The position numbers and the translations under genes were made by a program. The notes below the pieces were generated by a model that ran no database searches, was not told the origin of the DNA, and worked only from the letters and a program-made list of their open reading frames with translations. A stretch of 64,000 nt of DNA from a virus (Duplodnaviria; Caudoviricetes), in IMG/VR virus record IMGVR_UViG_3300037312_000804, positions 206 through 64,205 of that record. One strand, written 5' to 3'. Below, piece after piece: positions 1 through 3,100 of this stretch; position 1 is the first letter of the stretch, and every line of letters starts with the position of its first letter.

Positions 1-124
1 GCGGCAGGTGCGGCGCCCGTTCCAGCGTCGGCTGCTGGCCCAGTACCTGCGTCGGCCGGTTGCGGGCTTTGCGCTCCGCGCGCAGGCGGCGCTTCTTCTG
101 GAACTTGCGGGCGTTCGGGCACAT
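1..124 (-). CDS. Putative nested +1-frame basic peptide (MCPNARKFQKKRRLRAERKARNRPTQ..., partial)
   Basis: AAGGAG 7 nt before ATG; 38 of 41 codons end in G/C while the overlapping main frame is A/T-ending. Confidence 0.5.
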   Translation of the reverse strand, partial: MCPNARKFQKKRRLRAERKARNRPTQVLGQQPTLERAPHLP

Positions 125-3100
125 GGGCAGTCTCCTTGATGGGCTTCATGCTGACAATGGCTTCGATGGTTGTGTCGCCTCGCATGCGTGCTGCGGTGAT
201 GCGGTGGCCACCGTCCAGGATGTTCAGTTTGCCGGTGCGGGGCGACAACACGGCGATCACTGGCGGCACATCGTCGGCAGAACGGTCGCGGTATTCCTCG
301 GCGCGTGCGCGATTGACCGTGCCGTCGTACAGGTCACCGTTCTCGTTGTCCTTGAACATGGACAGCGGCACCGCACCCATGCGCAGCACGGAGCGGTTGC
401 CTTCACCTGCGTCAATCTGACGCACAGGGTCGACGCCGCCGGGCTTCTCCGTTTTTCCGCTGACTATCGCGCGCGCGTCGTCGTGGCTGATCAACTTGGT
501 GATGGATTCGACTCTCGCTCGCGGATTGGTCAGTGCAGGCTGGGCGTCGGCGGCGCCATCTGCACCAGTTCGATGATCGCCAGCGTCATCGCCGCGCTGC
601 GCGGCAGTTCCACCGCTTCCTGGTCGTTCGCCTTCGACAATTCCAGTTCCAGTTCCTGCACGTCCTGCGGCGTGATCACTTCCCACTTCAACAGCAGGTC
701 CGCCGCTTCGTCCGCGTCCATCAGTTTCTCGTTCAGTTCCAGCATTATCGATTCCATCGCGCGCCCCTTCGATCGGTTGAATGCGGAACTTGCCTTCGCT
801 GCCCACCACTTCATGCGGCTGGCCGGTTTCCTCGGCGTAGCGCTGCATCATGCGGTTGGCGGCCTTCATGTCTTCGAACGGTCCGGTGGACAGCGGCTCG
901 ACGGCGGGCTTGCTATCGGCCATGGCCTGCTTGCCGCGCGCGGCGATTTCTTTTTCGATCTGCTTGCGCTCGGCCATCAGCGCCTTGCGCTGTTCCGGCT
1001 GCTGCTGCGCGCGGCCGGCGACATCCTTCAGCGCTGCGCGCAGGTCTTCCAGCGGCATCGCCGTATAGTCGGGCGCGGCGGGCGGCATCTCAGGTGCGGG
1101 CGCCGGATCGGCTTCGTGCTGGTCGGCCGCCTGTTCGATGGCGGCGCTCATCGGGCCAGCATCGGCCGGCGTCGGCGCGGCGGCCGCGTGCACGACGGCA
1201 CCCTCCAGCGGGCCGGATGGCTGATCGATGGGGCGGATGGCGCGCAACTGGTCGGCTACGGATGAACCGACTGGCGCCGGGGCGGCTTCTGGCGCGACAG
1301 GATCTTGGGGCGGCATGTCGTCCAGCGTCGGCTCGATGCGCGGCTGCGCGCCTGGCGCGGCTGCTTCCGGCTGCGCCAGCGCGGCGCGCGCGCTGTGCGT
1401 TGCCTCGGACATGACACCCATGCCGGCGCCGCCCAGCCCGCCCTTGAGCGCGGAATCGATCACGTTGTCCAGCAATTCTGGCGTGAACAGCTTCTTGCCG
1501 CTGGCCTGCGTCTTGCCCGCCTCTTCGATGATCGTCTGCAGGCCCTCGGTGCCGGCTTCGGCAATGAACTGCTTGCCGGCCTCCACGCCCAGGCGCTTGA
1601 TGATGCCGCCCGCCACCTCGTCGACGACCGGCCCGGCGATCTTGCGCAGCGCGAGCACGGGTTCCAGCGTGTCCAGCAGACCGGCCGGGATGCCGTAGCC
1701 CAGCGCGATGCCGGGGCGCTTCTGGCCCGTCTCCTGGTAGATGTCGCCACCGATGGAGCCCGTCTCCATGCCGATGGTCGCGGGCGCTGCGCCGGCCGCG
1801 CTGCCCATCATCACGCGCTTTGCGATGAACTGCGCGGCGTTGCGCTCGGCGACGTCGCGGGCGATGCCCTTGGCCACCTGCGATTCGATCATGCCGCCCA
1901 CCAGCCGCTGCGCGCCGACCTTGGCCGCCTGCGCACCGATGCCACCGGTGGCGAGCGACGGCAGGATCATCGGCAGGTTCTCCATCACGGCCTCGATCGT
2001 GTAGCGGCCGACGTCGCCCATGTCGCGGATGTTCTTGTAGCTGCCGATCGTGGCCGGGTTGTTCTTGGCGACGTCGTTCTGGATCGCCACGTACTGGTCC
2101 AGCAGGCGCGTCGCCTCGTCTTCCTTGCCGGCGGCTTCGGCCGCCATGCCAGCGGCGCCGTAGCCCAGCGCGCGCAGGTTGTCGATGCCGCGGCCGAAGT
2201 CGCCGCGCGCCTGGTCGACGATGCCGGGGCGGTGCTTGGTGCCGGTTTCCGGGAATGCGACGGGCTGCTCGCGCGCGGGCAACTGCGGCACGACGCCATC
2301 CTGCTCGCCTTGAAGTTTCGCATTCAGGCGCTGATCGAAGAATTCCTCAGGCGTCGGGATCTTCTTCATCGGGCCGGCGGCGCGCTGGTCGGTCTTGGCC
2401 TTGAGGCGTGCGGCGGCCTGCTGGTCGTACTGCGCCATCGCGTTCTGCACGGCGGCGTCGTTCGCCTTCGGGTTCAGCGCGCGGAACTCCTTCTCGTAGT
2501 CGGCGCGCGCCATGCGGTTCGGTGCGAACTGGTTTTGCTCGGCGCCGGGCGTGAACGCGGGCGGCGCTTCCGGCGCGGCGGCCGTGTCGCCATAAAGCTG
2601 CTGGCCGATCTGCCCGGCCTTGGCCAGCACCTCCTGCCCGTATGCCGCCGTCTTCTCGCCCCACAGTTTGCGGTCCGGCCCGGCGAAGTGCTCCTTCACG
2701 GCATCGGCCATGTCGTAGCCCTTGTCCAGGCGCTCGCGCAGTTGCATGGCGATGGCGGGAACTGCCTCGTTCGGGTCGCGCGCGTTGATGCCCAGGCTCT
2801 TCGCCGTAGCGTCCAGGTACTGGCCGATCCCGGCCGCGCTGGTTTCCCTGTTGGTGGCGTCCGCGTTGTAGCTGGATTCCTGCTGCGCGATGGCCATCAG
2901 GACGTTCACGGGCACCTTGAAATGCGCGGCCGTCGCTTCGAACAGCGGACGCATCGACTCGGGCGGCAACAGGCTGGCGGGCGGCGCCGAGCGCGCGGCG
3001 GGCGCTGGCTTCGGCGCGGGCGCGGCCGCGCTCACATCGGGCATCTCGACGTCAGGCACCGGATCGCTGCCGGGCAGCGGCGCCGGCTGCTGGTCGATCA

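Follow-up and report, generated by a model that had tools for sequence, protein, structure and literature searches.

The 64,000-nucleotide (nt) stretch of DNA analysed here, referred to below as the window, comprises bases 206-64205 of a 64,205-bp contig of a tailed phage (Caudoviricetes; IMG/VR record IMGVR_UViG_3300037312_000804) with a GC content of 63.5%. At its very start, on the minus strand, lies part of a long open reading frame (ORF) for a virion or polyvalent protein. Within this ORF a second, much shorter one opens in the +1 frame, which would encode a small, strongly basic protein and is the subject of this report. A sequence-only reading of the window had pointed it out through the string AAGGAG-7 nt-ATG at position 124, understood as a Shine-Dalgarno (SD) sequence with its start codon, and direct reading confirms this arrangement (137-132, then ATG at 124-122, minus strand). 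The short ORF leaves the window at base 2; followed past this point, it closes at a TGA at genome positions 174-176, about 31 nt past the window start, giving a full length of 51 codons. It is contained entirely within the 1166-codon ORF of the same strand, in its +1 frame ((3140-124) mod 3 = 1). The long frame is referred to below as frame 0 and the short one as the nested frame or basic ORF, with coordinates collected in Table 1.

The host gene, meaning the long gene in which the basic ORF is housed, carries an SLT domain similar to the N-termini of giant "DarB-like / PLxRFG" virion proteins from 61-63-kb podophages (Itty13, PEp14, SopranoGao). The contig begins and ends with the same 127 bp (window 63874-64000 corresponds to genome 1-127), indicating a circular assembly of 64,078 bp. 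As the 1166-codon gene spans the contig junction, a linear annotation would split it. The whole stretch was present in one run only, a rhizosphere metagenome; soil-metagenome runs with small shares of its words were left aside as habitat evidence.

Taken singly, a frame of this kind could be a product of chance, that is, an open +1 frame of a linker rich in Pro, Ala, Gly and Glu (P/A/G/E) in a GC-rich genome, with SD and ATG arising by accident. The genome contains 149 nested ATG-initiated ORFs of at least 40 amino acids, of which 11 are preceded by an SD-like 4-mer and 2 by a 6-mer, and peptides rich in Arg, Lys and Pro are typical of wrong-frame products. The earlier count of 38 G/C-ending codons among the 41 nested codons inside the window holds, against 21 of 41 in the long frame. 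The high nested G+C at third positions (GC3) arises partly because these positions are the first positions, G or C, of frame-0 P/A/G/E codons (frame-0 G+C at first positions is about 0.9). The GC3 of the long frame itself is 0.80 overall, 0.40-0.55 over the basic ORF and 0.20-0.25 over a second nested ORF, acidic in product, which is described below. Since ORFs equipped with an SD are not rare in a genome this rich in GC, a single sequence proves little, and the significance of the nested frame rests on its relatives.

Conservation of the nested gene in relatives

Nine lineages were compared, six of which, termed unbiased, were obtained through the frame-0 protein only. A search with frame-0 residues 781-1046 gave P0001 (L001) and P0008 (L002), while the C-terminal 93 residues, which have no overlap with the nested ORF, gave L004/L005, L006 (a contig of an Oxalicibacterium metagenome-assembled genome) and L007/L008. 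Because these relatives were found through the frame-0 protein only, there is no bias toward the nested frame among them, and all carry the basic ORF, with lengths of 51, 51, 51, 52 and 44 codons. In addition, a back-translated pattern of the first 19 nested residues identified four IMG/VR contigs (L011-L014). The DNA pattern of the core peptide had zero matches in the metagenome and GTDB genome collections. Peptide-pattern scans for the frame-0 region of the ParB-like domain found nothing in the metagenome collection or IMG/VR. Scans of the same kind for the C-terminal domain gave no match in the metagenome collection and, in IMG/VR, a single distant locus (L003). A further distant relative, L009, with a C-terminal domain 59% identical, has neither of the two nested genes. 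Cultured phages were searched at the DNA level and by tblastn, using the region and both small proteins, acidic and basic, as queries; the matches were confined to the SLT domain (podophages of the Itty13, PEp14 and SopranoGao type), and the nested genes were not found there.

The start signals of the basic ORF are largely shared among the lineages. The sequence-only reading had named loss of the SD or ATG in close relatives keeping the linker as what would speak against translation; in the lineages compared the ATG is retained in 9/9 and an SD in 8/9. This SD is of the GGAG/AGGA type and stands 7-10 nt upstream of the ATG, despite unrelated upstream domains. Furthermore, the frame-0 codon lying over the nested ATG is CAT, GAT or AAT, encoding three different amino acids yet always ending in T, in a genome which prefers C at this position (GC3 0.8).

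The pattern of substitution in the first 19 nested codons carries the argument. All nine lineages encode one and the same peptide over residues 1-19, whereas read in frame 0 these 57 nt yield 8 different peptides. Confined to the six unbiased lineages, 11 of the 57 columns vary (at least 11 changes) and 6 frame-0 peptides result, with every change silent in the nested frame. The variable columns are third positions of nested codons 3, 6, 10, 11, 13, 18 and 19, together with first positions of Arg and Leu codons, where CGC and AGG interchange at three Arg codons and CTG becomes TTG at one Leu codon. By the method of Nei and Gojobori, the same six lineages give, for frame 0 of the core, 0 synonymous differences (Sd) and 71 nonsynonymous ones (Nd), so that every difference alters a frame-0 amino acid. 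For the nested frame, the ratio of nonsynonymous to synonymous proportions (pN/pS) is 0.06, the residual Nd stemming from two-step Arg paths only. Of single changes made at random, only 22.8% would leave the nested peptide unaltered, which puts the chance of 11 silent changes out of 11 at about 1e-7.

These results bear directly on the possibility of an accidental frame. A chance ORF accounts neither for a 19-residue peptide invariant in nine lineages, with at least 11 changes silent only in the nested frame and all 71 frame-0 differences nonsynonymous, nor for an ATG kept through T-ending frame-0 codons and an SD kept in front of unrelated upstream domains. Near identity of recent copies offers no escape, the relatives differing at a synonymous proportion (pS) of about 0.3. 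Chance is therefore considered highly improbable, for all that nested ORFs are numerous in this genome.

A second possibility is that the block is conserved as nucleic acid, for example as a recombination linker for domain swapping or as an RNA structure, and not for its peptide. It is more conserved than the domains flanking it and sits exactly where the relatives exchange domains, as such an element might. However, 11 of the 57 columns vary, and the changes, at third positions and between CGC and AGG or CTG and TTG, preserve the peptide and not the bases. Homology for recombination could coexist with coding, yet it cannot explain the substitution pattern, and as the whole explanation it is very improbable.

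Outside the core the constraint is weaker. Taken over codons 1-36, the nested frame has a pN/pS of 0.39, compared with 1.19 for frame 0 and 1.13 for frame +2; over codons 20-36 both coding frames are weakly constrained, each with a ratio of nonsynonymous to synonymous rates (dN/dS) of about 0.7. Past residues 21-40 or so the tails diverge or are replaced between lineages, the total length of the ORF still remaining at 44-52 codons. The absence of any change in the 19-residue core, set against neighbouring proteins that diverge to about 50% identity, points to a target under strong constraint for this segment. Judged by the substitution pattern in homologues, the +1 frame is under purifying selection at the protein level: selection keeps its amino acids, absolutely so for residues 1-19, as well as its ATG and, in 8/9 lineages, its SD. 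The small basic protein proposed earlier from SD and ATG would thus appear to be real, as the conserved start signals and substitutions of its relatives support it.

Frame 0, on the other hand, behaves as a frame that is kept open and in register only, its amino acids being unconstrained in the core as far as the substitutions reveal. It has zero stops in 9/9 lineages over 1100 to more than 2200 codons. The spacers between the stop of the acidic ORF and the ATG of the basic one measure 405, 435, 27, 438, 18, 192 and 186 nt, all 7 being multiples of three, for which the chance is about 0.001 if the frame-0 register were irrelevant. With a nested frame kept for its amino acids and frame 0 kept open and in register, the DNA is best described as dual-coding.

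This bears on a third alternative, in which the small gene is real and the overlap is not, the "giant gene" being a series of separate SLT, acidic, ParB-like, basic and C-terminal genes. The Joint Genome Institute (JGI) gene caller divided the region in this way in L004 and L005; with the long ORF cut by a contig end, it listed the ORFs of 75 and 51 codons as genes. Frame-0 codon usage is also abnormal over both nested genes, and in the core the frame-0 amino acids are free of constraint. Such a division is hard to reconcile with a frame 0 free of stops in nine lineages, with spacers all divisible by three, or with the absence of starts of their own in the ParB-like and other inserts. Moreover, four lineages have GTC or GTA in place of the GTG from which the caller started the C-terminal piece. 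Separate genes are accordingly regarded as unlikely. A related candidate, a C-terminal isoform restarting at that GTG, 20 nt past the nested stop (JGI call in L004), was rejected on the same codon change.

About 100 nt upstream of the long gene, at window 3246-3319 on the minus strand, ARAGORN predicts a transfer RNA (tRNA) whose anticodon loop has 8 nt and whose anticodon, gcct, has four bases. Its presence raises a different route into the nested frame, namely a programmed +1 frameshift from the long frame, perhaps via this tRNA, yielding a truncated giant protein with a basic tail. An in-frame AAGG overlapping the SD at 137 would be in its favour. Against this, the +1 frame contains a stop 2-10 codons upstream of the nested ATG in most lineages (2 codons in L014), and the ATG itself is universal. 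Variation of the xxG-GAG motif (AAGG, ACGG, CTGG, GCGG) is what an SD would show, as opposed to a fixed quadruplet. Upstream +1 stops, a universal ATG and the lack of a conserved quadruplet are together taken to exclude entry by frameshifting, and the explanation is very improbable as a whole. Quadruplet decoding by the gcct tRNA itself, which would read AGGC, was likewise rejected: in-frame AGGC occurs once in the long ORF, after the nested stop, with AAG in its place in relatives, and is not placed to enter either nested frame, and the relatives' loci with nested genes, among those fetched, have no such tRNA.

The acidic gene, the ParB-like domain and other inserts

Upstream of the basic ORF, in the same +1 frame relation to the host gene, lies the acidic nested ORF (Table 1). 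Its length is 75 codons in 8 lineages, with no indels, and 70 in L014, and the basic ORF is always found downstream of it. The net charges of the two products, -12 and +12, are exactly opposite. For the acidic ORF the standard pN/pS reaches only 0.6-1.2, whereas frame 0 has 1.8-4.4. With a ratio near 1, the case for this gene rests more on its fixed length, codon usage and confident fold prediction. Searches with the acidic protein in Pfam, PHROG, the PDB (by sequence) and the ESM Atlas gave nothing usable, and Foldseek, queried with the three-helix model, gave no match below E=0.7.

Table 1. Features of the locus, in window coordinates unless stated otherwise.
Feature	Position	Strand	Basis or remark
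Host gene, frame 0 (1166 codons, SLT-domain virion/polyvalent protein)	1..3140; GTG start 3140, runs off window start	minus	PF01464 SLT, E=6e-9
Host gene, C-terminal end	63718..64000; stop 63718-63720	minus	same ORF across circular junction
Acidic nested +1-frame ORF (75 codons, net charge -12), predicted three-helix bundle	530..757	minus	AlphaFold2 (AF2), predicted local distance difference test (pLDDT) 81.6
ParB-like frame-0 domain (probably DdrB-like ParB), insert in acidic-basic spacer	136..526 (family entry 140-560)	minus	weak PHROG match and DGGHR
Shine-Dalgarno AAGGAG	132..137	minus	7-nt spacer ACTGCCC before nested ATG; read directly
ATG start, nested +1-frame gene	122..124	minus	kept in 9/9 lineages
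Invariant core, nested codons 1-19 (MCPNARKFQKKRRLRAERK), predicted basic alpha-helix	68..124	minus	nine-lineage comparison and AF2
Variable Pro/Gln-rich tail, codons 20-41	1..67 in window	minus	codons 42-51 and TGA at genome 174-205

The frame-0 segment between the two nested ORFs probably encodes a DdrB-like ParB domain. The match to a ParB-like PHROG is weak (E=0.0065 over 28 residues). Pfam gave no match to the domain itself or to 24 homologues, and PDB sequence and profile searches were empty. The domain belongs to a sizeable family of 114 cluster representatives, occurring either as solo proteins of about 130-290 amino acids or as parts of polyvalent proteins, with the invariant motifs GKTEKPGG, DGTV, PPV and DGGHR, and a conserved Tyr and Arg. 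These features fit the description of DdrB-like ParB domains given in the published account (PMC5512222).

The relation of this domain to its neighbours becomes apparent in the relatives. One of them, without the insert, is represented by contigs from three RNA libraries of a single root-metagenome study, in which only 7 other letters separate window 135 from 527; the ParB-like insert thus replaces a short spacer, a net difference of 384 nt or 128 codons. The acidic and basic genes of L004 and L007 are 27 and 18 nt apart, without a ParB-like domain, while other domains occupy the gap in L002, L006, L011 and L014. The sequence-only reading had described the two nested ORFs as bracketing the ParB-like domain, acidic before and basic after. 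This order is correct for the present phage, whereas the bracketing proves incidental, given relatives that lack the domain or house others in its place. On this comparison of loci, the ParB-like domain is a mere insert between an otherwise adjacent acidic/basic gene pair. Cargo domains found in the host genes of relatives include GNAT-like and ART-like ones, beside SLT and ParB-like.

Two further nested ORFs were observed. In L014, a 150-codon HNH endonuclease gene (931-1380, plus strand; phrog_3377, E=1e-44) lies in the +1 frame directly upstream of the acidic gene, and frame 0 stays open through it with low GC3. Elsewhere in the window, at 58886-59017 on the minus strand, a nested ORF encodes a 43-residue Lys-rich peptide without similarity to the basic ORF.

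Interpretation and comparison with known systems

From the combined evidence, the segment from window 124 to beyond base 1, on the minus strand, is taken to be a genuine embedded gene of 51 codons, occupying the +1 frame of the linker downstream of the ParB-like domain in a virion-protein gene, with a probability put at roughly 0.8. Ribosomes would start independently at the internal SD and ATG on the late mRNA to produce a small protein of net charge +12, while those initiating at GTG 3140 would pass through these bases as part of a flexible P/A/G/E linker. For the product, one basic alpha-helix covering residues 3-21 is predicted, with a disordered tail behind it. Together, the acidic and basic nested genes would form a conserved two-gene cassette, with ParB-like and other cargo domains as probable frame-0 inserts in or beside it.

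Several points weigh against this interpretation or limit its reach. The known lineages number just nine, all of them uncultured phages of soil or rhizosphere, and one of these (L002) is without a good SD, having only AAAGAAAA. Translation is deduced from sequence comparison; the RNA-library contigs of a relative indicate at most transcription, and DNA carry-over into such libraries is possible. The tail is poorly conserved past about residue 21, such that the functional unit may be only some 20 residues long. Searches of Pfam, PHROG, the PDB (by sequence) and the ESM Atlas with the basic protein gave no family, fold or homologue from which a function could be read, and the idea of polyanion binding set out below draws on composition and a low-depth AF2 model.

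The 51-residue product begins Met-Cys-Pro-Asn, continues with a basic stretch and has no hydrophobic signal. Of its net charge of +12, +9 falls within the first 21 residues. From an alignment of seven sequences, AF2 models residues 3-21 as one helix (pLDDT 79-88) and the tail as disordered. Its charge, predicted shape and constant pairing permit a tentative guess, held with somewhat less than even confidence, that the basic helix binds a polyanion, which may be nucleic acid or the acidic (-12) 75-residue partner. A wider proposal, which is rather doubtful at present, is that the acidic and basic genes constitute a portable cassette forming the "linker" of giant virion proteins, with cargo, including even an HNH gene in a nested frame, swapped in and out in multiples of three nucleotides. 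In such a scheme the two proteins would form a complex and work with the giant protein, possibly as chaperone, packaging adaptor or cargo neutraliser.

Whatever the function, an embedded gene of this kind has consequences for how such loci are read. Gene callers treat the region as one long gene, and the small protein is consequently missing from almost every annotation. What looks like a "disordered linker" in a giant phage protein can be nothing more than a different gene seen in the wrong frame, meaning that phage proteomes are undercounted and that the linker composition and codon usage of giant genes are open to misreading. The dual-coded blocks sit, in addition, where the cargo domains of anti-host polyvalent proteins are exchanged. 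Literature searches brought up studies of overprinting in general, but none dealing with hidden genes in polyvalent-protein linkers of phages.

The arrangement invites comparison with established cases of overlap. In phage lambda, the o-spanin gene Rz1 lies inside the i-spanin gene Rz in the +1 frame. The basic ORF resembles this pair as a small gene wholly inside a larger one, in the +1 frame, with its own SD and ATG and with both readings kept by selection. Unlike Rz, however, its host is a virion or polyvalent gene and not a lysis gene, the host frame provides only linker, and two nested genes form a cassette. Lacking a signal peptide or lipobox and being set in a virion gene, the basic product is not a spanin.

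Lambda also provides a likeness for the protein, since its N protein carries an N-terminal arginine-rich RNA-binding helix. A short basic N-terminal helix rich in Arg and Lys, here a predicted one, followed by a disordered region is common to both, a resemblance that is compositional only: there is no detectable sequence relationship, and no boxB-like target was identified for the basic protein.

With respect to the host gene, the closest parallel is found among the polyvalent proteins of phages and conjugative elements, which include DdrB-like ParB domains (Iyer et al. 2017, PMC5512222). The host gene similarly codes for a late or virion protein of several domains, whose cargo can be exchanged (SLT and ParB-like, with GNAT-like and ART-like domains in relatives). 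Genes hidden in the linkers would represent an added layer, as a term search of PMC5512222 found neither "overlapping" nor "linker".

Finally, an HNH endonuclease has been described as an out-of-frame insertion in a phage methylase, read through by the host gene as the "ShiLan domain" (PMC11855218). Here too an out-of-frame gene resides in a host without an internal stop, which reads it as an extra loop or linker, and the HNH gene of L014 is of this same type. The basic ORF differs in being no nuclease (Pfam and PHROG searches found no family for its product), in bearing no sign of homing and in being fixed in all nine lineages. As a family it is new, and it places a known gene arrangement in a setting that is new as well.

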